A stretch of DNA of 64,000 nt from Lentisphaerota bacterium (GTDB taxonomy: Bacteria; Verrucomicrobiota; Kiritimatiellia; UBA8416; VGWJ01), in contig VGWJ01000006.1 of assembly GCA_016873635.1 (NCBI GenBank), forward strand, positions 3,102-67,101, in the 5' to 3' direction. The notes beneath the pieces were generated by a model. The model was given only the letters and a program-made list of their open reading frames with translations. It was not told the DNA's origin and searched no databases. Below are positions 3,001-25,406 of the stretch, piece after piece. Made by a program: the position numbers and the translations under genes. How positions within the stretch are numbered: the stretch's first letter is position 1; each line of letters starts with the position of its first letter.

Positions 3001-4013
3001 TTGGACGCCGTTTCCTGCGCCGAGCGTTCGAGTTCCGCGATCCGGTCGCGCATGGAGGTGAAGCGCGACTCCGTCTCCACCGCCATTCGCTCGCGGCCGG
3101 AGCCCATCGTCTCGATCTCGCGGCGCGCGGCAAGGAGGGCCTGCGTGGCCTGGTCGGCGTTCCGCCGGAGGGTATCGATTTCGCGGCGCAGCTCGTTCTC
3201 GCGTGTCCGGCTGCGTTCCTGCGCCTGCAAGCCGCTGGCCCGCTCGTCGCGCAGGGCTTTGCGGGCGCGGTCCAGGCGCGCGGCCGCGTCGGCCGCGCGG
3301 GACGCGAGGTCGTCGGCGGCGCGGCTCAGTCCGGCGAGTCGCTCGCCGTCGCCGCGTTTCGCGGCCGCCTGCTGCGCGCGTTCGGCCGCCAGGCGCTCGC
3401 GCGTCTGATCCAGCTCCTTCTCCATGGCGGCGGCGCCGGAGGAGATATCCTGGATGCGGCGCTGCAGGTCATGCTCGCGCGTGCGGCTCTCGGTCTGCAG
3501 CGCGTCAAGCCGTCGCGCGCGTTCCTGGAGGTCCTTCTCCGTCTCGCGCAGGCGGCCGGCCGCCTCGGCGGCCTGTCTTTCCAGCTCCGTCATCCTTTCG
3601 AGATTCTTCTTCAGCGCGGCCATGTCCTCGCCGGCGGGCGCCACGCCGAGAATGACCGCCTTCCGGGCGCCGACGGTGGTTTGCTCGCCGGTTTCCGCGT
3701 TGCGCAGGGGCGCGTCTTCGGTGATGGTCCCTTCCACCACGAGGTCGGCCAGGGCGCGGATGTTAAGCGGGCCGTACGGGGTTCCGTCGGCCAGGGTGAC
3801 CGTCCAGACCATGCGGAGTTCCCTGAGGTTTTCGACGGGAACCCACTTGCGATTGTCGGCGGAAACCTCGTTTCCGGGCGCAATGCGGCCCTGCTCGGCC
3901 CAGGCGATGAGGTCTTTGAGAGGGGCGGGTCCGAACACGGAACCGTCGTCGATCTTGAGGTACCACTGGTCGGCCGGGCCGGCCTTGTCTGTCGGTTTCA
4001 CTGGTTCGGGCAT
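1..4013 (-). CDS. Large coiled-coil protein, C-terminus beyond window. N-terminus has two tandem GYF-like/DUF4339 domains (WYLKIDDGSVFGPAPLKDLIAWAEQGRI... and MVWTVTLADGTPYGPLNIRALADLV...), followed by >1200 aa of E/R/A/Q/L-rich heptad-like coiled coil.
   Basis: I translated the reverse complement myself. It is open from the ATG at 4013..4011 (MPEPVKPTDKAGPADQWYLK...) through position 1 with no stop, and the composition is a typical coiled coil. The same-register + ORF 18..4073 is >30% Leu with almost no E/K, so it is the antisense shadow. The gene is absent from the ORF track, presumably because it has no stop inside the window. Confidence 0.7.
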   Translation of the reverse strand, partial: MPEPVKPTDKAGPADQWYLKIDDGSVFGPAPLKDLIAWAEQGRIAPGNEVSADNRKWVPVENLRELRMVWTVTLADGTPYGPLNIRALADLVVEGTITEDAPLRNAETGEQTTVGARKAVILGVAPAGEDMAALKKNLERMTELERQAAEAAGRLRETEKDLQERARRLDALQTESRTREHDLQRRIQDISSGAAAMEKELDQTRERLAAERAQQAAAKRGDGERLAGLSRAADDLASRAADAAARLDRARKALRDERASGLQAQERSRTRENELRREIDTLRRNADQATQALLAARREIETMGSGRERMAVETESRFTSMRDRIAELERSAQETASKLTEAERQSTARAAQIEQLNRALAGSKDDLSGIRKQIEDEKNRAEAQARDLNARIEQLNAALADATKEREDARAQLETEKNRAEAQARDLNARIEELDRALAGTVEDLSATRGRLEAERADAEAQARDLSARIEQLKAALAGATEELNRARAELEAERARTESQARETETRVGDMKRQASELERKATEAAARLRAAEEDLQRRITEFARIRNESHAREQGLREVIRDMRQAAGRALEEVAGARAHAAALRAASDADAKRDEERRGDLAGRLDGLQAQGQRAAKALDGLRADLRDERARYDVILQRSSELEAERLTHTEHIKHVLAEEVERLGADLDREREAFEGLRRTFAEREKAFQDRILDLQGLVGTDFEEHRKLYERRKAALEKIGELEAELDLARRERDDAMAIGSEKEGELGARLRALAADRDQRAARAAALERELGQERAVVAELKERAQKTDNELAQRLDQVQDECRELTRRLGDRELELEEMTKLRDDAREELRRREEDLAEQRAAAEQAAQEGRARDAAAESRIDELQRRCAETTARLDQIEWDSRQRESSLSDEIEGLRNEKTYLEEQLEEGRKTVQELHLALDQERRELTRLTELYASAEENVQTREKALNEHVARLQREREDMQAQLGRARAELDEQKTLSAELDKTSTEQERLARHRLEQAEQKLQSLQAEIDGARQQAARQTEAAEALRAQLAERQAEAENRIAQAQADYRALQENLAQRAERVEASEALLRQKDQELAELRKLYETAQQELTRREDDFQKAMEQTQERYRALNVKVDEDRRIFQTERTRAQQQADELGRQRKLFDEEQKLRRKREQELAQARRQIEEERERIAQREDAVTSARTQVEDEAQRRQTAEEKLAAYEKALRDAQDRYDQLRREFDQERAMASETRQRGEQERADFAARLSQLQDEHRGVALSLEEATQELEQQRSMAEEERARNRQREDELALQVEQLRQEQLSLSEEQERATQELDQRRILHEDEQE
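2581..2970 (-). repeat. Intragenic direct tandem repeats, 3-4 copies with a ~117-120 bp period, inside the coiled-coil gene. They encode repeated ~39-aa units (...KNRAEAQARDLNARIEQLNAALA...).
   Basis: Near-identical DNA blocks containing gagctgttcgatgcgggcg(c/t)tgaggtcgcgggcctgcgcttcggcg at ~2581, ~2698, ~2812 and a partial one at ~2929. Confidence 0.6.
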
Positions 4014-4097
4014 GCCACACCTCGTTGTTGCGAGCGTCTGCGCCACGGCGCCGGGGGCGGAGGGCCGTCATGATTCCGCGCCACTCAAGTACACGGT

Positions 4098-4400
4098 TCA
4101 AGGAGTGTCAAGCTGTTTTGCCATGCGGAAGTCATCCATCACGAATCCCTTCCCGATGTCCCGGACCGGTTCGCCGGTCACGGCGAACCCCAGGCGGCGG
4201 TAGAAAGCGATGGAGCCGGCGTCATGGCGGTTGACTGTCAGCCACAATTCCCGGATGCCCAGGCCGGTGCGGAGCTCTTCAACGAAGGCGCTCACGGCCG
4301 CGGCGAGCCGTTGCCGTTGCGCCGTTCCCAGGACCGCCGCTCGCGCGGCGGGTTGCGGCAGGGCTGGCGGTTCGCGGCGACGTACACGCTTTCCTCGCCC
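4098..4400 (-). pseudogene. GNAT-family N-acetyltransferase-like C-terminal region (motif A/B-like ...LRTGLGIRELWLTVNRHDAGSIAFYRRLGFAVTGEP...). Probably a fragment or remnant: its ORF 4098..4745 would overlap the 3' end of dnaE by several hundred bp.
   Basis: The last ~70-95 aa of minus ORF 4098..4745 have a clear GNAT motif-B signature (N..A..Y..LGF). The N-terminal 120 aa are Arg/Pro-rich junk and overlap the well-conserved dnaE C-terminus. Confidence 0.3.
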
Positions 4401-7400
4401 AGCGCGTGCTGCAGGCGCGCGATCAGCTCTTCCGACGGCGTGACCCGCATGCTCTCGTCGGCATCGAGAAAAACCTTCTCCCCCGACGGAAACAGCAGGC
4501 AGATGCCCACCGGGACGTTGCCCGGGTGCACGCGGAGCATTTCCCGCACGGTTGCGAGCCTCTGCTCGTCGAGGCCGGCCGCGGGGATGTGCAGGCTGAT
4601 GCGTTTGGCGAACAGCCGCGGCGCTTCGGACAGGGGGTAGATCTCGGCCGCGACGAGGCGCGGGGTATCCTCGCGCCTGGAGATTTCGCCGCACACCATC
4701 ACGGCGCTCTCGGGGACCAGCGCGGCGCCGTACTGGCGGTAGCATTCGGGGAAGACCAGGACTTCCATCGAGCCCTCCATGTCCTCCAGCGTGACCACGG
4801 CCATGGGCTCCTTCTTCTTGGTCATGCGCCTGGCGAGCTGGGCGACGATGCCGCCCACGCGCGTGGAGGCGCGGTCGTCCAGGGCGGCCGCGCCGGGGAT
4901 GTCGGCCAGGCGGTAGCGCATGAGAAGCGGCGCGTGCTCGGCGAGGGGGTGGCCGCTGAGATACATGCCCAGGAGCTCTTTCTCCCCCGCGAGGAGCTGG
5001 CTCTGCGGCCAGGGCGGGCGGTCGGGCAGGCCGGCGTCGACGCCGCGGTCCGGGCTGTCGGCGGCGAGCAGGTCGAAAAGCCGGCCCTGGCCCGTTTCCC
5101 GGTCGCGGACCGTCGCGCTCGCCCGCGCCATCGCGAATTCGATGCCGTTGAAGACCTTGGCCCGGTGCGCATCCAGCGAATCCATGGCCCCGCAGCGGGC
5201 GAGGCTTTCGATGGCCTTGCGGTTGACGAGCTGGCTGTCCAGGCGCGTGCAGAAATCCACGAGGCCGGCGTAGGGGCCGCCGCGCTGCCGCTCGCGCGCG
5301 ACCGCCTCGGCGGCGCCCGCCCCCACGTTCTTGACGCCGGCCAGCCCGAAGCGCACGGCGCTTTCCGACGGCGTGAAGCGCACGCCGCTGGCGTTCACGT
5401 CCGGGGGCAGCACGGCCAGGCCCATGGCCTGGGCTTCGGCAATGAATACGGGGATCTTGTCGGAATTGCCGATTTCGCTGGAAAGCAGCGCGGCCATGAA
5501 CTCGGACGGGAAATTCGCCTTCAGGTAGGCCGTCTGATAGGCGATCACGGCGTAGCCGGTGCTGTGGGCCTTGTTGAAGCCGTAGCCGGCGAACGATTCC
5601 ATGTTGTCGAAGATGCGGCCCGCCAGGGCCTTGGGAATCCGGTTGGCCTTCTCGCAGCCGGCCACGAACTTGGCGCGCTGCTGCCGCATGACTTCCGCCT
5701 TCTTCTTGCCCATGGCGCGGCGCAGGATGTCGGCCTCGCCCAGGGAATAGCCGGCCAGGACGTTGGCGGCCCGCTGCACCTGCTCCTGGTAGACCATCAC
5801 GCCGTACGTTTCCTTGAGGATCGGCTCGAGCAGGGGGTGGTCGTAGGCGATCGCGGCTTTCCCGCTCTTGCGCTCGATGTAGGCGGGAAGCATCTCCATG
5901 GGCCCCGGCCGGTAGAGGGCGATCATGGCGATGAGGTCCTCGACGCAGTTGATCCCGATGCGCCGGATCAGGTCGCGCATGCCCGTGCTTTCAAGCTGGA
6001 ACACGCCGACGGTGTCGCCGCGGTTCAGCAGGTCGTAGGTGGGCCGGTCGTCGAGCGGCAGGTTGTCGATGTCGACGGTCAGGCCCCTGGTCTCGCGCGC
6101 CAGCGCCACGGATTCCTGGATGACGTCGAGCGTCTTGAGCCCGAGGAAGTCCATCTTGAGCAGCCCGATCTCGCCCAGCGGCTCCATGGAAAACTGCGTA
6201 ACCGGCTCGCCGTCCTTGTCGCGGGCCAGCGGGATGATCTCCACGAGGGGTTTCTCGCCGATGACCACGCCCGCGGCGTGCGTGCCCGCGTTGCGGTAGA
6301 GCCCCTCCAGGGAGAGGCCCAGGTCCAGGATGCGGCGGCAATCGTCATCCGTCTCGTAGGCCTTGCGCAGCTCGGGGTTCAGGTCCAGGGCGCGCGGCAG
6401 AGTCATCTTGGGGTCTTCGGGCACCATCTTGGAGAGCTGGTCGCACTTGCCGTAGGGGATCTCGAGCACACGGCCGACGTCGCGGATGACCATCTTGGCG
6501 CCGAGCGAGCCGAAGGTGATGATCTGGGCCACGTTCTCGCGGCCGTACTTGCCCTTGACGTAGTCGATGACTTCCCCGCGGCGGGCCTGGCAGAAGTCGA
6601 TATCGAAGTCCGGCGGTGAGACGCGTTCGGGGTTGAGGAAGCGCTCGAAGATGAGCCCGTAGCGCAGGGGGTCGATGGCCACGATGCCCAGCGCGTAGGC
6701 CAGCAGGCTGCCGGCGCCGGAGCCGCGGCCGGGCCCCACGGGGATGCCGGCGTTGCGCGCCCAGTGCACGAAGTCCCAGACCACCAGGTAGTAGTTGATG
6801 TAGCCGGTCTTCTCGATCACGGCCAGCTCGTGCCGGAAGCGCTCGACGATCTCGCGCTCGCGCGCGTCGCGCGGCCGGTCGCAGTTCTCCACGCCGTACC
6901 TGGCGCGGATGCCTTCGCGGCACAGCCGCGTGAGATATTCCTTCTGGGTGAGGCCGTCCGGAGCGTGGTAGGCCGGGAAGTGCGGCCGGCCGAATTCAAG
7001 CTCGACATTGCAGCGCTCGGCGATGTCCGCCGTGCGGTCCAGGGCCTCGGGAACGTCGCCGAAGAGCCGCTCCATCTCGGCGCGGCTCTTCATGTAGAAC
7101 TGGTCGGTCTGGTAGCGCATGCGCTTGGGATCGCTCATCACGGTCTGGGTCTGCAGGCAGAGCAGCACCTCGTGGGCGGCGGCGTGTTCCTTTTCGAGGT
7201 AGTGCACGTCGTTGGTGGCCACCAGCGGCAGCCCGGTCCGGCGCGACAGCTCCACGGACAGCTTGTTCACCTGCCGCTGCTCGCGGATGCCGTGATCCTG
7301 GATCTCGAGGTAGAAGTTGTCCTTGCCCAGGATGTCCGCGTATGCGCCGGCGGCCTGCGCGGCGCGGGGCATGTCGCTGTCGAGCAGCCGCGACGCGACT

Positions 7401-9274: not shown

Positions 9275-9359
9275 GTGCACCCGTGGTGAAACTGGTATAC
9301 ACGCAAGGTTCAGGTCCTTGTGGCCGCTAAGGCCGTGGGGGTTCGAATCCCTCCGGGTG
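9275..9359 (+). tRNA. tRNA-Leu, anticodon CAG. Class II tRNA with a long variable arm, 85 nt, CCA not encoded.
   Basis: Hand-folded: acceptor GCACCCG/CGGGTGC; 3-bp D-stem GTG/CAC with a GG-containing loop; anticodon stem CAAGG/CCTTG with loop TTCAGGT (U33, CAG, G37); variable arm GGCC-loop-GGCC; T-arm GGGGG-TTCGAAT-CCCTC. Confidence 0.8.
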
Positions 9360-9431
9360 CACCCGCCTCCGCCCCGGCGGCGGCTGTGGCGGACGGATCC
9401 GGCGCGTTGCCCGAAGCGGACGAGGTGTCTG

Positions 9432-11958: not shown

Positions 11959-14478
<2,520 letters not shown>

Positions 14479-14489
14479 CCTGTGGGTGT

Positions 14490-15626
14490 ATGAGCGCCAT
14501 CGACGCCGTCTTCGTCCACTGCGCGGACCTGGACCGGCTTCACTACCCGGCGGATTGCCCGTTCAAGACCTCGCGCGCCGGACGCACCCGCGACGCGGTT
14601 GCCGCCATGGGGCTGCTGAACGGCCCGCGCCGCAAGGTCGTCGAGCCGCGGCCGCTGACCCGGGCGGAACTCGAGGCCTTTCACGAACCGCGCTATCTCG
14701 ACGCCCTCCGGGCCGCGGCCGGCGGAGAACTGGGGCCGGAGGGCTTCGCGATGGGCCTCGGCACTCCGGACTGCCCCGTCTTTCCCGACATGTACGACTA
14801 CCCGGCCCTGGCCTGCGGCGCCACGGTCGAGGGCGCGCGCCTGCTCCTGGAAGGGGCGGCGCGCGTCGCGTTCAACCCTTCGGGCGGGTATCACCACGCC
14901 ATGCCCGACCGCGCGGGCGGCTTCTGCTACCTGAACGATATCGTGTTCGGGTGCCGCGCGCTGGCCGCGGCGGGGCGGCGGGTAGCGTTCCTGGACATCG
15001 ACGTGCACCATTGCGACGGCGTGCAGGCGGCCTTCTACGACCGGGCCGACGTCATGACCATTTCCCTGCACGAGACCGGGCACAGCCTCTTTCCGGGCAC
15101 GGGCTTCGAGGACCACATCGGCGAAGGCGCCGGGCGCGGCTACAGCGTGAACGTGCCGCTGCCGCCGGGCACGGACGACAGGGCCTACCTGGCCGCTTTC
15201 CACGCCGTGGCCTCGCCGCTCATGGAGGCTTTCGCGCCGGACGCGGTTGTCGTGGAGGCGGGCATGGACGCCTTGAGCGGCGATCCGCTGGCGCACCTGC
15301 GCCTTACCAACAACGCCTACGCCGAGATTGCGGAATGGGCCGTGGCCTTCGGGCGGCCGCTGCTGGTCACGGGCGGCGGCGGCTACAACGCCGACAACAC
15401 CGTGCGCGGCTGGTCGCTGCTGTGGAGCATCCTCTGCGGGGCGGGCGCCGACAACGAGATGAGCCTCGGGCTGGGCGGCGTCATGCTGGAAGGCACGGAA
15501 TGGCACGGCGGCCTGCGGGACCGGCCCATGCTCTCGCGCCCGGGAAGGATTCCGGGAATTGACGACGCGATCGCGCGGACCGTGGAGCGCGTGAAACGCC
15601 TGGTGTTTCCGTTGCACGGGATTTGA
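14490..15626 (+). CDS. Histone deacetylase-family protein (AcuC/acetoin-utilization-like deacetylase).
   Basis: HDAC signature GFCYLNDIV, DIDVHHCDGVQ, SLHE..H.FPGTG. Confidence 0.85.
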   Translation: MSAIDAVFVHCADLDRLHYPADCPFKTSRAGRTRDAVAAMGLLNGPRRKVVEPRPLTRAELEAFHEPRYLDALRAAAGGELGPEGFAMGLGTPDCPVFPDMYDYPALACGATVEGARLLLEGAARVAFNPSGGYHHAMPDRAGGFCYLNDIVFGCRALAAAGRRVAFLDIDVHHCDGVQAAFYDRADVMTISLHETGHSLFPGTGFEDHIGEGAGRGYSVNVPLPPGTDDRAYLAAFHAVASPLMEAFAPDAVVVEAGMDALSGDPLAHLRLTNNAYAEIAEWAVAFGRPLLVTGGGGYNADNTVRGWSLLWSILCGAGADNEMSLGLGGVMLEGTEWHGGLRDRPMLSRPGRIPGIDDAIARTVERVKRLVFPLHGI

Positions 15627-15674: not shown

Positions 15675-17024
15675 ATGGCCTCTCTGCTGATAGTGGACGA
15701 CGACCAGTCGATCCAGACGCAGATGAAATGGTCGCTGGGCGGCGACTATTCCGTCGAACTGGCCGGAGACCGCCCCGGCGCGGTCGCGGCCGCCGCGGGC
15801 AGCGGGGCCGCGGTGATCCTGCTTGACCTGGGCCTGCCGCCGCGTCCCGATGAGCCCGAAGAAGGCATCGCCGCGATGCGCGAACTGCTGGAGGCCAACC
15901 CCCACCGCAAGATCATCGTCATCACCGGCCAGGGGGAAAAGGGCAACGCGCTGCGGGCCGTGGCCGAAGGCGCCTACGATTTCCTCAACAAGCCCATCGA
16001 CATGGATGAGTTGAAAATCATTCTCAAGCGGGCCTTCCACCTGGTGCGGCTGGAAGCGGAATACCGCGAGCTGCAGGGCAAGCTTGCGGCCGACGGCTTT
16101 GAGGGCATGCTGGGCACGAGCCCGCAGATGCAGGCCGTTTTCACGGCCGTTCGCAAGGTTGCGCTGGCCGATGCCCCGGTATTGATCCTGGGCGAGAGCG
16201 GCACGGGCAAGGAGATGGTGGCGCAAGCCATTCACCGCCGCAGCCGGCGGCAGGCGGGCCCTTTCGCGGCCATCAACTGCAGCGCAATTCCCGAAAACCT
16301 CCTGGAGAGCGAGCTCTTCGGGCACGAAAAGGGGGCCTTCACCGGCGCCCACGCCCAGCGGCCGGGCCGCATGGAGGCCGCCGCGGGAGGGACCCTGTTT
16401 CTGGATGAGATCGGGGAAGTCCCGCTCGCCCTGCAGGTCAAGCTGCTGCGCTTCCTGCAGGAGAAGAGCATCCAGCGCGTCGGCGGCCGCCGCCCGATCG
16501 AGATCGACGCGCGCGTGCTCGCGGCCACCAACGTCGACCTGAAACAGGCCATGGCCGCGGAGCGTTTCAGGGAAGACCTCTACTACCGGCTGGCGGTCGT
16601 GACCGTCAGCCTGCCGCCCCTGCGCGAGCGAACGGGGGACATCCCCGTCCTGGCCAAGGTCATCCTGCGCCGCTTTGCGCTGGAGAACAACCGCAAGCTG
16701 TCCGGCTTCAACGCGGAAGCGCTGCGCGTGATGTCGGCCTACGCCTGGCCCGGCAACGTGCGCGAAATGGAGAACCGCATACGCCGGGCGGCCATCATGG
16801 CGGAAGGCCGGCACGTCACGCCCGAGGACCTGGAACTCGATCCGGCCGCGGTGGGCCTCAAGATTACCACCTTGAAAGAAGCCCGCGAAAAGGTCGAGCG
16901 CGAGGCGATCAGGAGAGCCATGGCCCGCCACCGCAACAACCTCAGCCGCGCCGCCGAGGAGCTCGACGTCAGCCGGCCCACCCTGTACGAGCTGATGGAC
17001 AAGCTCGGCATCAGGCGGGAGTGA
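15675..17024 (+). CDS. Sigma54-dependent response regulator of the PrsR/PEP-CTERM-box type (REC + AAA+ sigma54 activator + C-terminal HTH).
   Basis: The receiver has the PrsR hallmark LLDLGLPPRPDEPEEG. GAFTG loop and [15 protein letters not shown] present. C-terminal Fis-type HTH. Confidence 0.85.
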   Translation: MASLLIVDDDQSIQTQMKWSLGGDYSVELAGDRPGAVAAAAGSGAAVILLDLGLPPRPDEPEEGIAAMRELLEANPHRKIIVITGQGEKGNALRAVAEGAYDFLNKPIDMDELKIILKRAFHLVRLEAEYRELQGKLAADGFEGMLGTSPQMQAVFTAVRKVALADAPVLILGESGTGKEMVAQAIHRRSRRQAGPFAAINCSAIPENLLESELFGHEKGAFTGAHAQRPGRMEAAAGGTLFLDEIGEVPLALQVKLLRFLQEKSIQRVGGRRPIEIDARVLAATNVDLKQAMAAERFREDLYYRLAVVTVSLPPLRERTGDIPVLAKVILRRFALENNRKLSGFNAEALRVMSAYAWPGNVREMENRIRRAAIMAEGRHVTPEDLELDPAAVGLKITTLKEAREKVEREAIRRAMARHRNNLSRAAEELDVSRPTLYELMDKLGIRRE

Positions 17025-18954: not shown

Positions 18955-20493
18955 TCACGGGCCCGGGGACTTGACGTAGATCAGCTTGTGGTCGCCGGGT
19001 TCGTAGAAATCCTCGACGACGCCGGCTTTGCGGAAGCCGTTGCGCTCGTAGAAACGGCGCGGCGGCTCGTAGTCGCTTCGCGATGACGTCTCGACCACGA
19101 TCAGGCGTCCCTGGCGGGCGCGGATCGAGGATTCGGCGCGGGCCAGGAGGGCGCGCGCCACTCCGCGTCGGTGGCATGCCGGGCTGACGGCTATCCAGTA
19201 CAGGTCGAAAGCGCCTGCCGTGCACGGCGTCGGGCCGTAGCAGGTCCACCCCACGACGGCGCCGTCGAGCGTGGCCGTGAATGACTGGTAATGCCCGCCC
19301 TCGCCCTTTGCGAGCGCGTCGTCGAGCACTTCCCTGGCCACGTCCAGTTCGGACGGCCGGAAGACGCCCGTTTCCTTGAGCAGGTTCAGAATGGGCTGCC
19401 GGTCGTGGGGCGCGGACCACGCAATCTGCAGATCCGCCGGGGGCGCGGACGTGCGCGACGGGGGCGGCTCCGGGGCCACGGGCTGGCCCGCGTTGGCAAG
19501 CAGCGCGGCCACGAACTGGGCAAAGCTGATTCCCGCGGCGTGCAGGGCGGAGGCGAAACCGGCGTCGGGCGCGATATCGGGGTTGGGATTCACTTCGATC
19601 ACGAACGGCCGGCCTTCGGCGTCGAGGCGCATGTCCACGCGCGCGTAGTCGCGGCATCCCATGCGCTTCCAGGCGGCCAGGGCCGCGGCGCGGATTGCAT
19701 CGGCCGCCAACTGATCGACGTCGGCCGGCACGCGGCGGATGGTGTGGGCGTATTCGAACGAATCCTCGATCCACTTTGCGCGGTAGTCCACGATGCGCGG
19801 CAGATGGCGCGGGAAGGCGCTGAAGTCGATTTCGGCCAGCGGCAGGACCGACACCTCGCCGCCTCGCTCCAGCAGCGCGACATTGAATTCGCGTCCCTCG
19901 ATGTAGCGCTCGATCAATGCGGGCTGATGCAATTCCCTGTGGATACGGGCGGCGCGTTCGAGCACGGCGGCGCGGTCGGCCCCGGACAGGACGGAAGAGG
20001 CGTCAATGCCTTCGCCGGCGTCGGCGCGCAGGGGTTTGACGATGACGGTCGCGGAGGGAACAAAGGCCGGCAGGTCGGTGTCGCCGGCGTCCAGGACCGC
20101 GGCGACGGGCACGGGGATGCCGGCCGCGCGCATTGCGACTTTGCTTTGCCATTTGTCAAGCGCCAGCAACTGGCAGGCCGTGCCGCTGCCGGTCCAGGCC
20201 TTGCCGAGGGCCGCGCACACGGCGGGCACGAGGCAGGCATCGGTCGCGGACCCGTCCAGGCTCTCGACCAGGTTGATGACGCAAGGTTCGCGGCCGGAGG
20301 ATATCTCCCGGCCGGCCTCGCGCAGCGTGCGCACGGCGGCCAGGCGGTGCGGCACGCCGAGCTCGGTCAGGCCCGCGGCGACGGCGGCGGCTTCGACGAG
20401 CACGCCGGCGTCGGATTCGGCGTCGCGGCGGCTGCCGTCGGCGGCCGGGCCGCGCGGCTGATTGTGGAGGACGAGGACGGGGGGGCGTTCCAC
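18955..20493 (-). CDS. Fusion protein: N-terminal D-Ala-D-Ala-ligase-family ATP-grasp enzyme plus C-terminal GNAT acetyltransferase domain.
   Basis: The ATP-grasp core (...KPLRADAGEGIDASSV..., EIDFSAF, IEVNPNPD) is followed by a ~150-aa GNAT domain (...YWIAVSPACHRRGVARALLARAE...RFYERNGF). Start overlaps the upstream stop. Confidence 0.85.
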   Translation of the reverse strand: MERPPVLVLHNQPRGPAADGSRRDAESDAGVLVEAAAVAAGLTELGVPHRLAAVRTLREAGREISSGREPCVINLVESLDGSATDACLVPAVCAALGKAWTGSGTACQLLALDKWQSKVAMRAAGIPVPVAAVLDAGDTDLPAFVPSATVIVKPLRADAGEGIDASSVLSGADRAAVLERAARIHRELHQPALIERYIEGREFNVALLERGGEVSVLPLAEIDFSAFPRHLPRIVDYRAKWIEDSFEYAHTIRRVPADVDQLAADAIRAAALAAWKRMGCRDYARVDMRLDAEGRPFVIEVNPNPDIAPDAGFASALHAAGISFAQFVAALLANAGQPVAPEPPPSRTSAPPADLQIAWSAPHDRQPILNLLKETGVFRPSELDVAREVLDDALAKGEGGHYQSFTATLDGAVVGWTCYGPTPCTAGAFDLYWIAVSPACHRRGVARALLARAESSIRARQGRLIVVETSSRSDYEPPRRFYERNGFRKAGVVEDFYEPGDHKLIYVKSPGP

Positions 20494-20495
20494 GG

Positions 20496-21500
20496 TCAGG
20501 CTCCCGCGCGCGTCGCGGCGGCGGGCGTCAGGCGTTGCGCGGCGCTGTCGATGATTGCGCCGATGAGTTGCACGTAGGGCATGCCTTCCTGCGTGGCGAT
20601 CATGGGCAGATCGGAGTGGGTGGGGTGCAGTCCGGGCAGGGCGTTCATTTCCATGAACGCCGGCTTGCCGCGGCGGTCCAGGCGAATGTCGACGCGGCCG
20701 GCGTCACGGCATTCCAGGGCCCGATAGGCCTTGAGCGCGAGGTCTTCGACGTCCGCCCGCAGCGCGCCGCGCTCCAGGGCCGCGTAGCGCACAACCGTCT
20801 CGCATTTCTCTTTGACGTCGAAGGAGTAGTCCGCGGAGGAGGCGTTGGGAAGCATGCTGATTTCCATGGTGCCGAGCACGCGCGCGTCCGGACCCGTGCC
20901 GAGCACGCCGGTGGTGAACTCCCGCCCGGGCAGGTACTCCTCCACCAGAACGGGCTGGCGCAGCCGCCGCAGCAGGGGCAGGGCCGTGCGCCGCAGATCC
21001 TGCGGGCCGGCCACGCGCGATTGATGGTCGATGCCCTTGCCGGTGCCCTCGGCGACGGGCTTGACGAAAAGGGGGTAGTCCAGGCTTACGGCGTCGAGGT
21101 CTGCGGGCCGGGATACAAGGCAGAAGCGCGGCGTGGGCAGGCCGCAGGCGAGCACGATGCGTTTGGCCACGGCCTTGTCCAGGGTGACGGCGCAGACCAG
21201 CGCGTCGGACATGGCGCAGGGCACGCCGTAGAGGTCGAGCAGGGCCGGGACCTGGGCTTCGCGGCTGCGTCCTTCCATGCCTTCGGCAATGCTGAACACG
21301 AGGTCCCAGCGGTCGCCCCCGACCAGGCGCGCCGCGAGGGCGCGTCCGCGTCCGACGGGATCGACTTCGTGGCCGCAGGCCCGGATGGCATCGGCCAGGG
21401 CGGCGATCGTGCTCTCGGAGTCGAACTCGGCCACGTCCTCCGCCGAGTAGCCCTCCGTGAGGTATTCGCTGCGCAAATCGTAGACCAGGCCGATTTTCAT
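20496..21500 (-). CDS. D-alanine--D-alanine ligase-family ATP-grasp protein (334 aa).
   Basis: MKIGLVYDLRSEY... with Ddl-like motifs (FVKPVAEGTGKGI, EEYLPGREFT, MEMNALPGL). The rest of ORF 20496..22799 upstream of this start is Arg-rich antisense junk. Confidence 0.85.
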   Translation of the reverse strand: MKIGLVYDLRSEYLTEGYSAEDVAEFDSESTIAALADAIRACGHEVDPVGRGRALAARLVGGDRWDLVFSIAEGMEGRSREAQVPALLDLYGVPCAMSDALVCAVTLDKAVAKRIVLACGLPTPRFCLVSRPADLDAVSLDYPLFVKPVAEGTGKGIDHQSRVAGPQDLRRTALPLLRRLRQPVLVEEYLPGREFTTGVLGTGPDARVLGTMEISMLPNASSADYSFDVKEKCETVVRYAALERGALRADVEDLALKAYRALECRDAGRVDIRLDRRGKPAFMEMNALPGLHPTHSDLPMIATQEGMPYVQLIGAIIDSAAQRLTPAAATRAGA

Positions 21501-21544: not shown

Positions 21545-22951
21545 TCAGGCCGTGTGCGGCCACAGCAACTGCTGGCCGGACACGGAGTCGCAGGCGGCCC
21601 GTCGCTGGACGGAACGGCGCCGGTTGCGATTGCTCCGTTGCGACGACCGGCCGCAGGCCAGGGCCCAGACGCCGCTGTTGTCCGCCGGGCCGCCGCCCGC
21701 ATAGAGCGGAAGATCGTTGCAGGGCTCCGGATAGCTGATCATGTCGCCGGCATAGTTGCGCAGCACGGTGTGGGTCGGGCTGGCGGAAATCACGTAGTTC
21801 GGCAGGACCGGGATCTTGCCGCCGCCGTGCGGGGCGTCCACGACGAACGTCGGTATGGCCAGCCCGCTCAGCCGGCCGCGCAGGTATTCCATGATTTCGA
21901 TGCCTTTGGCCACCGGCGTGCGGAAGTGCTCCACGCCCCGCACCAGGTCGCACTGGAACAGGTAGTACGGCCGCACGCGCGCGCGTACCAGGCGCCGGAA
22001 CAGGTCGGCGAGCAGCGGAGCGGAATCGTTGACCCCGCGCAGCAGCACGGTCTGGTTGCCCACGGGAACGCCGGCGTCGGCCAGGCGCGCGCAGGCGGCC
22101 TCGGAAGCGGGCGTGAGTTCCGCGGGGTGATTGAAGTGCGTGTTGACGTACAGCGGATGGTATTTGCGCAGCATCCGGACAAGCTCGTCGGTGATGCGCA
22201 TGGGGAGGACGACGGGAGTGCGCGTTCCGATGCGGATGATGTCCACGGAGGGCGCCTCGCGCACGGCCCGGATGACGCGTTCCAGCGCGTCCGTCGACAT
22301 GGTGAAGGGGTCGCCGCCGGATATGATCACGTCGCGGACTTCCGGATGGACCGAGAGGTATTCCGTGGTCTGCGTCAGGCGCACGCCGGTTATGCACTCT
22401 TCCGTGTGCCCGGCGACGCGCTTGCGCGTGCAGTGCCGGCAGTACGCGGCGCAGGCCGTGGTTGCGATCAGCAGCGCGCGATCGCGGTAGCGGTGCACCA
22501 GCCCCGGGACGGGCATGTCGCCGTCTTCGCCGAGCGGATCGTCCCTCAGGAAAGGCGGATCGACCAGTTCCTTGCCGTCCGGCACGCACATGGCGAACAC
22601 GGGGTCGGTGGCGTCCAGGCGGCGGATAAGCGAGGCATAGTAGGGGGTGATGGCCAGGGGGAACCGGTTGGCCGCGGCCGCCGTGGCAGCCGTGGTCCTC
22701 AGCGAAGGAAAGCGGCGCTTGAGCGCGGCGACGGAACGCACGCGGTGGCGAAGCTGCCACTGCCAGTCGTCCCAAACCGTGACGTCTCCGTCGGCGCAAA
22801 CCGCGGCGTCAGTCCCCGGCAGGGGGGATTGCGCGTTCCGCGGTGTGGCGTCTGACGGCGGAGGTTCCTCATCGGAGTCCCTCCTTTCATCCCGCGCGTT
22901 TGCCAGGGCAACTCCAGCGTCACGGCTGTCTTGCCTCGCACTCTCCTTCAT
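21545..22951 (-). CDS. kamA: Lysine 2,3-aminomutase (KamA/AblA family radical-SAM enzyme).
   Basis: CAAYCRHCTRKR CxxxCxxC motif, the WDDWQWQLRHRV N-terminal signature, and a PLP-binding region. ATG at 22951 is preceded by GGAGAA; the GTG at 22993 is possible. Confidence 0.9.
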   Translation of the reverse strand: MKESARQDSRDAGVALANARDERRDSDEEPPPSDATPRNAQSPLPGTDAAVCADGDVTVWDDWQWQLRHRVRSVAALKRRFPSLRTTAATAAAANRFPLAITPYYASLIRRLDATDPVFAMCVPDGKELVDPPFLRDDPLGEDGDMPVPGLVHRYRDRALLIATTACAAYCRHCTRKRVAGHTEECITGVRLTQTTEYLSVHPEVRDVIISGGDPFTMSTDALERVIRAVREAPSVDIIRIGTRTPVVLPMRITDELVRMLRKYHPLYVNTHFNHPAELTPASEAACARLADAGVPVGNQTVLLRGVNDSAPLLADLFRRLVRARVRPYYLFQCDLVRGVEHFRTPVAKGIEIMEYLRGRLSGLAIPTFVVDAPHGGGKIPVLPNYVISASPTHTVLRNYAGDMISYPEPCNDLPLYAGGGPADNSGVWALACGRSSQRSNRNRRRSVQRRAACDSVSGQQLLWPHTA

Positions 22952-23105
22952 TCTCGATTCTCCCATTGCGGTTTTCAGAATCAGCGGCTGCACTCTATGT
23001 CGCTTCCGTCACTGCCGCAACATATTTCGGCGCGGCAGGATAACGCCGCGACGCCTCGGCGCGGCAGGACTCCTGCGCGCTTCTGCTACTCGCGCGTCAG
23101 AGATC

Positions 23106-23121
23106 TGCAGGGGGCGTGCCA
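23106..23121 (-). promoter_or_regulatory. Sigma54 (-24/-12) promoter TGGCACG-CCCC-CTGCA, oriented toward kamA.
   Basis: Reverse complement of 23106..23121 reads TGGCACGCCCCCTGCA, matching consensus TGGCACG-N4-TTGCW at all positions but one. Lies ~150 bp upstream of the kamA start and immediately downstream of the sigma54 activator gene. Confidence 0.6.
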
Positions 23122-23250
23122 ATCCGCGCGCGGCGGGGCCCATCCTCTGCAACAAACTTGCGCGTAAAAGCTTAGGCGAGAACGGCGCGCGGTCGCCGGA
23201 GGCAGCAGGTTTCTTCGCCGCCGGGAATCGGAAAGGAGATCCGCGCGCAA

Positions 23251-23274
23251 CCGGAAAACGATTTCCTATTCCGG
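23251..23274. promoter_or_regulatory. Candidate enhancer/UAS palindrome CCGGAAAACGATTTCCTATTCCGG (GGAA..TTCC core) ~130 bp upstream of the kamA sigma54 promoter.
   Basis: Inverted repeat seen directly. A similar GGAA-N-TTCC palindrome sits at the equivalent distance from the second sigma54 promoter. Confidence 0.35.
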
Positions 23275-23287
23275 CGTGTCCGGCGGA

Positions 23288-24715
23288 TCATCGCGGAGGG
23301 GCGCGGAAGTCCTCCTTGCGCAGCCCGTAGCGTCTCATCTTGTTGAAGAGCGAGCGCGGCTCCAGTCCCGCGCGCCGGGCGGTTTCGCCTACGCGTCCGC
23401 CGGTGGCGGCGAGCAGCCTGGCAAGGTATGCGCGCTCGAAGCGCTCGACGGCGGTCTCGCGGATCTCCTTCAGCGGCCGTTCGATCCAGTCGTCGGGGAA
23501 GTCCTCGCCGCCGGGCAAGCGCGGCGCGGGCGCGCCTTCACGGCCGCCGGCGATTTCCGCCGGCAGGTCCGCGAGGCCGATCTGGTCTTCCTCGCACAGG
23601 AGCACGGCGCGTTCCAGAACGTTGATCAATTCGCGCACGTTGCCCGGCCAGGCGTATTCGCAGAGGGCGTCCATGGCTTCGGGCGCGATGCGCCTGGCGC
23701 CGCGTCCGATCCGCGCGAAAAGCCCTTCCATGATGGACGACGCCAGCGCGGGAATATCCCCGCTGCGCTCGCGCAGGGGGGGGACCTCGATGGCGACGAC
23801 TCCCAGGCGGTAGTAAAGGTCGCCGCGAAAACGCTTGTGCTCGACTTCTTCGCGGATATCCCGGTGCGTGGCGGCGATGACGCGCACGTCGACGGGTATC
23901 TTTTTTTCGCTGCCCACGGGCGCGACTTCGTAGTCCTGCAGCACGTGCAGCAGCTTGACCTGCAGGTGAAAGGGCATCTCGCCGATCTCGTCCAGGAAGA
24001 GCGTGCCGCCGTGGGCCAGCTCGAAGCATCCGCGCTGGGCGCGCGTGGCTCCGGTAAAAGCCCCTTTCTCGTGTCCGAAGAGCTGGCTTTCCAGGAGGTT
24101 CTCGGGAATGGCGCCGCAGTTCACGGAGATGAAAGGGCCGTCGGAGCGGCGGCCGTCGTTGTGAATGGCGCGCGCCAGCCGCTCCTTGCCCACGCCCGTC
24201 TCGCCGCTGATCAACAGCGGGGTGTCGCTGTCGGCCACGCGCGTCACGGTGCGCATGAAGCGCTGCATGGCGGGGCTGTCCGAAACGAAGTCGCCGAGGC
24301 CGGGGCGCGGCGTGGTGCGCCGTACGGCGACGGTCTTGCTCAGCAGTTCGCGGCGCTTCCTGGTGATCAGGCGGATGGCTTCCCAGATCACGTCGTCGGG
24401 CACGCCCGTGTAGATCGCCGCCTCGGCGCCCGCGGCGCGCAGGATGGCGAGGTCCTCGGCGTCGTCGTCGCCGGAAAGCACGATCAGGTCCGGGGCGTTG
24501 GCGGAGGACGTGAGGCGGCGGACGTTCTCCTCGACGGGTTCGGGAATCACGCGGTCGCAGACAATGAGGACGTCGGACAAAACCTGCCCGACGGTATCCC
24601 ACGCGGCCTCCCTGGCGACCGGAGCGCGCACGAATGCGTCCACGTCGCGCAGCAGGGCCAGCACGCGGGAGCGGAGCTTGATCTGGTCAACCAGCAGCAG
24701 AATGCGAAGCTGCAT
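23288..24715 (-). CDS. Sigma54-dependent Fis-family transcriptional activator (divergent receiver-like N-domain + AAA+ + HTH).
   Basis: GETGVGKE Walker [22 protein letters not shown], and a C-terminal HTH. ATG at 24715 ([11 protein letters not shown]). Confidence 0.9.
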
Positions 24716-24828
24716 CTGACGGTCCCGGCGTCCTGCGGACGATTCCCTTCGCGGCCGTGGCCGCGAAACGGACAATCACGCGGGTGAATCTATCGGAAGG
24801 CATGCGGGGGTCAATGGGAAAAGCGCGA

Positions 24829-24848
24829 CTCGGAACGCCCTTTCCGAG
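24829..24848. promoter_or_regulatory. Candidate UAS palindrome CTCGGAACGCCCTTTCCGAG. A second perfect palindrome ATGTCGTGCGACAT lies at 24901..24914.
   Basis: Inverted repeats read directly, 55-140 bp upstream of the 24968 sigma54 promoter. Confidence 0.3.
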
Positions 24849-24967
24849 GAAGTCGGAAACGGCGGCTGCGAGGCAAGGCGCGCGCGCGGCGGCGCGGATC
24901 ATGTCGTGCGACATAACAGACGGACAGGCAATACGTTGCATCAAACAGGCGGACTTCGGGCGAAGCT

Positions 24968-24983
24968 TGGCACGGTGCCTGCA
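24968..24983 (+). promoter_or_regulatory. Sigma54 promoter TGGCACG-GTGC-CTGCA, divergent from the activator gene and driving two small ORFs.
   Basis: TTGGCACGGTGCCTGCA has the same architecture as the kamA promoter. First downstream ATG is at 25019, ~36 bp after the -12 element. Confidence 0.6.
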
Positions 24984-25018: not shown

Positions 25019-25186
25019 ATGCCGAGGAAGACGAGCAAGACCGATGAGCCGCTGAAGAAACCGAAGCGGAAGCGCAAGGCGCGCGCGGCGGCGGGAGCGG
25101 CGGACGCCGCCGGGAACCGCTTCAAAGCCGACCAGTTCGAGCAGATGGACGGCGCCGAGTGCACCTGGTTCAAGAAGGCTTGAGCC
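25019..25186 (+). CDS. Small Lys/Arg-rich protein of 55 aa (MPRKTSKTDEPLKKPKRKRKARAAAGAADAAGNRFKADQFEQMDGAECTWFKKA).
   Basis: Below the ORF-track length cutoff. AAGGA sits 8 nt upstream of the ATG, directly downstream of the sigma54 promoter. Confidence 0.35.
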
Positions 25187-25223: not shown

Positions 25224-25406
25224 ATGCCCAACGGAACAAAGCCGAAGAAGAGGGCCGCGGCGCGGCGGAATGCCGTGCGGAAGCTTGCGCCCGAAGAGCG
25301 CTATCGCAAGATCCAGGAAGAAGCGTACCTGCGCGCCGAACGGGACGGCTTTCAGAAGGATCCCGTCGAGTACTGGCTCGCGGCCGAGTCCGTGTTCAAA
25401 GCCTAG
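25224..25406 (+). CDS. DUF2934-family small protein (EERYRKIQEEAYLRAERDGFQKDPVEYWLAAE).
   Basis: Matches the DUF2934 consensus E.IRERAY.LWE..G.P.G...EDWL.AE. 60 aa. Confidence 0.6.
   Translation: MPNGTKPKKRAAARRNAVRKLAPEERYRKIQEEAYLRAERDGFQKDPVEYWLAAESVFKA

Follow-up and report, generated by a model that had tools for sequence, protein, structure and literature searches.

A predicted sigma-54 promoter and a candidate enhancer ahead of a kamA cassette in an uncultured Lentisphaerota bacterium

Sigma-54 polymerase is held at its promoters as a closed complex on the -24 and -12 elements, until an oligomer of an enhancer-binding protein (EBP) reaches it by DNA looping and drives opening with ATP. 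In promoters of the NtrC/ZraR type (glnAp2, zraP-zraSR), a palindromic enhancer lies about 100–140 bp upstream of GG-N10-GC, the activator joins an AAA+ domain with a GAFTGA loop to a Fis-type helix-turn-helix (HTH), and one target lies next to the EBP gene in divergent orientation. In Bacillus thuringiensis HD73, experiments established that the kamA promoter requires sigma-54 (SigL) and the activator KamR (Zhang et al. 2014, via PMC4428206). There kamA directly follows the co-oriented EBP gene, a -24/-12 promoter lies in the interval between the two, KamR carries a PAS sensor domain, and the locus, which has a role in lysine metabolism, is transcribed by sigma-K as well (PMC4428206). In a 2025 in-silico survey, the GroEL/ES, IbpA and Usp genes of Planctomycetota were enriched in predicted sigma-54 sites; in its accessible text the survey ties lysine 2,3-aminomutase to sigma-54 in Bacilli only, is a promoter scan that names no EBP or enhancer, and does not cover Lentisphaerota (PMC12316311). 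In the methanogen AblA/AblB pair, which makes the osmolyte N-epsilon-acetyl-beta-lysine, a KamA-family aminomutase is likewise followed by an acetyltransferase function. To our knowledge, Archaea are without sigma-54.

The locus described here lies in a 64-kb stretch of Lentisphaerota DNA, called the window throughout, whose source organism is known solely as a metagenome-assembled genome. It works like KamR-kamA, with a co-oriented EBP gene directly upstream of kamA and a -24/-12 promoter between them, but does not belong to that system: two ATP-grasp ligases and a GNAT domain come after kamA here, the host is a Lentisphaerota, the EBP has further targets, and its N-terminus is divergent and receiver-like where KamR has a PAS domain. 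All of the NtrC/ZraR traits listed above recur, and ZraR is the best solved match of the EBP; the TCGGAA half-site and the target genes differ from that type, and the receiver domain is without a clear Pfam match. The arrangement is thus a classical one, found in a new organism and with a new gene set.

The predicted promoter, TGGCACGCCCCCTGCA, is a -24/-12 motif at positions 23106–23121 of the minus strand, intergenic and facing kamA within the 336-nt spacer that separates kamA from the EBP gene. Its GG (-25/-24, 23120–23119) and GC (-13/-12, 23108–23107) are spaced by exactly 10 bp, and its single departure from TGGCACG-N4-TTGCW is a C instead of T at -15, which makes the -12 element CTGCA rather than TTGCA. 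An earlier note on this DNA had reported a match to that consensus, which is exact in the GG, the GC and their spacing and fails at this one base. The same note had put the site about 150 bp upstream of the kamA ATG and just after the EBP stop codon. We measure 155 nt to the ATG (22951), on the same strand, and 167 nt from the stop codon (23288–23290) to the site. Transcription is predicted to start near 23095, about 12 nt past the GC, which gives kamA a predicted leader of about 144 nt.

Taken alone, the bare consensus match is not significant and is weak evidence. Searched over the whole 64-kb window with at most one mismatch, TGGCACG-N4-TTGCW matches twice against 1.28 expected, and at least two matches occurred in 39 of 100 shuffles. 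We therefore give more weight to position and context. A matrix scan for RpoN sites, which the earlier note had named as a check, scores the kamA site at 16.14 bits on a heuristic matrix drawn from approximate consensus frequencies and not from a curated set; this is the joint top score in the window, ahead of a runner-up at 12.53. The two 16.14-bit sites flank the EBP gene, each facing the gene downstream of it. On an independent-base background, sites with this score are expected 0.12 times per window and 3e-4 times on the minus strand of the EBP–kamA spacer. The promoter call becomes convincing because the site is conserved in other genomes and paired with an enhancer.

Contig look-ups of EBP orthologues provided six loci (L161–L166), or seven with the window, and the order EBP, kamA, ATP-grasp, ATP-grasp/GNAT is kept in three of them, with an extra GNAT/histone-deacetylase-like gene after kamA in L161 and L166. 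All three carry a palindrome followed 140 nt later by a sigma-54 site: L161 (EBP 75% identical to that of the window) has the palindrome at 6902–6919 and TGGCACGCCGCATGCG at 7051–7066 (+), L164 (73%) has them at 5368–5385 and 5517–5532 (+, TGGCACGCGGTATGCA), and L166 (69%) at 4682–4699 and 4831–4846 (+, TGGCACGCTCCCTGCA). When the four EBP–kamA spacers are aligned (A1), only two islands are conserved against a diverged background, namely a palindrome block, tCGGaAt-N5-TTTCCGrTT with a second TTTCCG about 22 nt further on, and TGGCACGC-N4-TGC. These four syntenic loci are relatives and hence not independent events. As a control we took 22 PVC kamA/ATP-grasp cassettes from a genome scan with KamA, fetched with up to 6 kb of upstream DNA and without an EBP there; coming from other PVC phyla, they serve as a negative control and not as footprinting. 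Within 600 nt upstream of kamA, no sense-strand site reaches a score of 9 in 21 of the 22, so that a sigma-54 site precedes kamA in 4/4 loci with an adjacent EBP and in 1/22 cassettes without one. The lone exception, L001, has TGGCACGACAGTCGCT at 5827–5842 (+, 14.8 bits) with no TCGGAA palindrome upstream.

The candidate enhancer, or upstream activating sequence, of the kamA promoter is an 18-bp palindrome at 23251–23268, located by motif scan and in alignment A1, which reads TAGGAA-N6-TTCCGG on the minus strand and differs from the consensus TCGGAA-N6-TTCCGA at two positions. At up to two mismatches, this consensus occurs just twice in the window, here and, in perfect form, at 24830–24847. 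With distances counted between the centre of the palindrome and the first base of TGGCAC, the two copies lie 138 nt (kamA) and 130 nt (divergent) upstream of their sigma-54 sites, and the kamA distance stays within 138–140 nt across the four kamA loci. Among the 18 palindromes of L161–L166, 17 have a -24/-12 site no more than 240 nt downstream, which for 14 of them lies at 96–140 nt: 140 nt before kamA in each of L161, L164 and L166, 138 and 140 nt before groES in L163 and L165, 126–130 nt before the divergent small ORF, and 96–108 or 132 nt for the rest of the fourteen. The distances fall loosely in helical phase (Rayleigh p ~0.03 at the level of promoter classes), which is suggestive only.

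Two further features lie between enhancer and promoter. An extra half-site, TTTCCGA, at 23228–23234 (minus strand) is about 23 nt promoter-proximal of the palindrome and falls in a TTTCCG/TTCTG block aligned in A1 and in a second alignment, A4. Closer to the promoter, G+C drops to about 45% at 23140–23185 (minus strand) against 69% for the genome, a dip that recurs at the corresponding place in most of the other kamA and divergent modules. This stretch may be a bending or IHF-type site, which again is suggestive only. An IHF site is not claimed as a feature, the signs being the consistent G+C dip and one perfect IHF consensus, WATCAANNNNTTR, in the divergent module of L161.

The EBP gene occupies 23288–24775 (minus strand) as a longest ORF beginning with TTG at 24775; the NCBI-style start is ATG 24715, for a protein of 475 aa. 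Pfam matches to Sigma54_activat (PF00158, E = 6e-71), AAA_lid_14 and HTH_8, the last a C-terminal Fis-type HTH (PF02954, E = 4e-7, residues 443–483), are joined by a GAFTGA loop, Walker A and Walker B (DEIG) that align to ZraR (1OJL). Judged by these domains, it is a complete NtrC-family enhancer-binding protein. Its N-terminal ~140 residues are receiver-like in appearance; PF00072 has no match in the window protein and is precomputed for some homologues that are 51–55% identical, and the NtrC model aligns from residue 10, far below its cut-off. Pfam finds no PAS domain in the protein. A protein search returned a 100% identical protein named from a Lentisphaerae MAG and many orthologues at 60–75% identity. 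The 64-kb window contains no rpoN gene or RpoN box, and RpoN is present in both Lentisphaerae genomes of a published survey (Table 1 of PMC3372290). A second EBP gene in the window, at 15675–17024 (+), encodes an NtrC-type protein with GAFTGA and a clear receiver domain; 59 nt before its ATG lies a weak sigma-54-like site, TGGTGTTTCCGTTGCA, at 15601–15616 (+, 11.25 bits), which could reflect autoregulation or a chance match.

On the far side of the EBP gene, the second top-scoring site, TGGCACGGTGCCTGCA at 24968–24983 (+), is a putative sigma-54 promoter conserved in the seven loci. It lies 35 nt upstream of its presumed target, a conserved basic 54-aa ORF (25019–25183, +) that ends in DQFxQMDGAE(S/C)T(Y/W)FKKA and has no Pfam or NCBIfam match, followed by a gene for a small DUF2934 protein (25224–25406, +), assigned by family match. 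Its candidate enhancer at 24830–24858, identified by motif scan and alignment, reads TCGGAA-N6-TTCCGA-N5-TCGGAA with every half-site perfect. When the regions upstream of the EBP gene are aligned (A2), TCGGAA-N6-TTCCGA-N5-yCGGAA is invariant in 7/7 loci, the window included, and TTGGCAC-N5-rTGC follows about 105 nt after this enhancer; behind the promoter, an ORF of about 55 aa, of a family ending in DQFxQMDGAESTYFKKA, starts in 5/7. It is with this divergent enhancer–promoter pair, and not with kamA, that the EBP has a conserved association across the seven loci. The enhancer is abutted by a sigma-70-like promoter of the EBP gene, TTGACC-16-TAGATT at 24787–24814 (minus strand), proposed from its consensus match, and this contact makes autoregulation of the EBP possible.

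The genes around the orthologues point beyond kamA. The three loci where kamA does not adjoin the EBP gene have hsp20, usp, DUF2934, groES-groEL and a RimK/MATCAP/FGase operon as neighbours; DUF2934 genes also adjoin the EBP orthologues in L163 and L166. In L164 the cassette is succeeded by three hsp20 genes that have a -24/-12 site to themselves. Across related Lentisphaerota and Kiritimatiellota, this type of enhancer–promoter module stands ahead of groES-groEL and hsp20 genes, with usp genes in the operons that it heads. A palindrome and a -24/-12 site precede groES-groEL at 11999–12161 in L163 (3430–3592 in L012, the same DNA) and at 3877–4040 in L165, spaced by 138–140 nt, and the Kiritimatiellae enhancer and promoter have the same architecture as those of kamA (A4). 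On that Kiritimatiellae contig, the kamA cassette sits directly downstream of groEL, about 7 kb from the EBP gene. As in the Planctomycetota survey (PMC12316311), PVC bacteria here have -24/-12 sites ahead of groES/groEL, small heat-shock and usp genes. Gene neighbourhoods in six loci thus suggest that the EBP probably runs a stress regulon, which the kamA cassette joined in this lineage; the inducing signal may be heat, osmotic or general stress.

In the mechanism that we propose, sigma-54 holoenzyme would contact the GG at -24 and the GC at -12 of 23106–23121 and rest there as a closed complex. The adjacent EBP would bind the palindrome at 23251–23268 and the nearby half-site through its Fis-type HTH, probably in the form of dimers that come together as a hexamer, and the DNA would loop over the stretch of lower G+C to bring the EBP to the polymerase. 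ATP hydrolysis and the GAFTGA loop would then open the complex, and transcription would begin at about 23095. From the divergent promoter at 24968–24983, this EBP would likewise activate the genes for the 54-aa and DUF2934 proteins.

We consider it highly probable, on the comparative and positional evidence, that 23106–23121 (minus strand) functions as a sigma-54 (RpoN) promoter of the kamA, ATP-grasp and ATP-grasp/GNAT operon, detected by pattern and matrix scans and conserved in L161, L164 and L166. The central proposal of the earlier note, a sigma54 promoter between activator gene and kamA, is borne out by a site that is intergenic, correctly oriented, joint best in the window and conserved in relatives. 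Its wider claim, that the beta-lysine cassette is under RpoN control, gains support that is computational in kind, from the conserved site, the paired enhancer and the adjacent GAFTGA-bearing EBP. That reading did not extend to the enhancer, the second sigma-54 promoter beyond the EBP gene or the broader stress regulon.

Three other accounts of the kamA site bear on this view. The promoter could be genuine and answer to another EBP, such as the NtrC-type response regulator encoded at 15675–17024. A second complete EBP is indeed encoded in the window, the pairing of the adjacent EBP with this promoter draws on adjacency and shared motifs only, and on the Kiritimatiellae contig the cassette is some 7 kb from the EBP gene. 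However, the kamA palindrome matches the one that is invariant beside the adjacent EBP gene in all seven loci, the window scan places no TCGGAA palindrome near the second EBP gene, and the site before kamA tracks EBP adjacency in the control comparison, all of which makes a foreign activator unlikely. The adjacent EBP remains the activator that we favour.

Alternatively, kamA could be transcribed mainly together with the EBP gene from the sigma-70-like promoter, leaving the -24/-12 site silent or minor. A scan of the 336-nt spacer predicts no intrinsic terminator between the EBP gene and kamA, a crude result for a genome of 69% G+C, and since none was found, transcripts that start at the EBP promoter may run on and add to kamA expression. 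As the main route such read-through seems very unlikely, since by itself it leaves unexplained why a -24/-12 element and an enhancer should keep their distance constant while the four spacers around them diverged. Least probable of all is that the motif arose by chance in G+C-rich intergenic DNA. The counts for the loose pattern given above, with about 1.3 one-mismatch matches expected per window, are what such an origin would produce; yet the same element stands in the same place in three further genomes, paired with a palindrome, it has a twin beyond the EBP gene, and the spacer itself should hold only 3e-4 sites of its score. The comparative data effectively refute a chance match, and a functional sigma-54 promoter activated by the neighbouring EBP is the reading carried forward here.

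The best start of kamA is ATG 22951, with a GGGAGA Shine-Dalgarno sequence 8 nt upstream. At Rfam gathering thresholds, no riboswitch or leader matches the 144-nt kamA 5′ UTR, and a structured leader was rejected as a candidate, its fold being no stabler than shuffled sequence (z = -0.57). The predicted leader does hold a perfect 14-nt direct repeat, TCCTGCCGCGCCGA, at 23027–23040 and 23056–23069 (minus strand), 29 nt apart, in an insertion that L161, L164 and L166 do not have.

The cassette opens with kamA (21545–22951, minus strand), a KamA-family radical-SAM 2,3-aminomutase by its Pfam LAM_C and Radical_SAM matches. A D-Ala-D-Ala-ligase-type ATP-grasp gene (20496–21500, minus strand), in an order kept in 22 PVC loci, begins 44 nt after it, and is abutted by an ATP-grasp/GNAT acetyltransferase fusion gene (18955–20493, minus strand), assigned by family matches and conserved order, that ends the cassette; spacings this short (44 and 0 nt) point to an operon. 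The trio is conserved in MAGs of Planctomycetota, Kiritimatiellae, Victivallales and Verrucomicrobiota (L001–L022, with the kamA match at about 6001 in most of them), and our literature search returned nothing on the kamA/ATP-grasp/GNAT cassette itself. KamA passes the NCBIfam KamA subfamily model TIGR00238 (307 bits vs 199) and aligns with the solved lysine 2,3-aminomutase 2A5H at 434 bits, retaining Asp293 and Asp330 (QCD, VVDAP), which we take to be the residues that bind the lysine epsilon-amino group in that Clostridium enzyme. It falls below the cut-off of the AblA equivalog (TIGR03820; 478.3 vs 525.4 bits), which leaves beta-lysine as a likely product of the enzyme and not a proven one. 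Stress or osmotic adaptation is a likely context that the cassette shares with AblA/AblB; besides the lower KamA score, the cassette differs from that pair in having the GNAT domain fused to an ATP-grasp and a second ATP-grasp gene.

The linkage of the cassette to chaperone and stress genes points away from lysine fermentation and towards stress protection as its role, and its product may be an uncharacterised beta-lysine-derived solute, e.g. an acylated beta-lysine peptide. More tentatively, and as a proposal that we hold plausible but somewhat short of probable, this EBP family and the TCGGAA-N6-TTCCGA enhancer would define an undescribed sigma-54 stress regulon of Lentisphaerota/Kiritimatiellota, comprising groESL, hsp20, usp, DUF2934 and the 54-aa protein, into which one lineage recruited the kamA/double ATP-grasp/GNAT cassette. 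The promoter mechanism itself is textbook. What the locus offers is testable wiring for an uncultured PVC bacterium, namely the DNA target of an activator, a transcription start and the genes expected to respond together, and it ties a widespread uncharacterised cassette to genes for chaperones and stress proteins. As a by-product of modest novelty, this EBP family in uncultured Lentisphaerota/Kiritimatiellota gains a candidate enhancer motif and a candidate stress regulon.

Some observations lie outside this argument. The sole Rfam match in the window is a tRNA gene at 9277–9361 (+). A metagenome scan with the EBP returned a single distant orthologue, L081, at 47% identity and with a different divergent operon; there the EBP gene (3179–4678, minus strand) is divergent from a sigma-54-like site, and the translations of the operon look, by eye, like peptidoglycan-binding, AdoMet-decarboxylase, acyltransferase and ATP-grasp proteins, together with two small, LysW-like zinc-ribbon proteins with acidic tails. 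In the Firmicutes loci L048, L062, L073 and L074 (~4500–4830), an EBP gene is followed by a strong -24/-12 site (e.g. TGGCACGGATCTTGCT) about 1.2–1.5 kb upstream of kamA, and these loci probably parallel the KamR-type arrangement.
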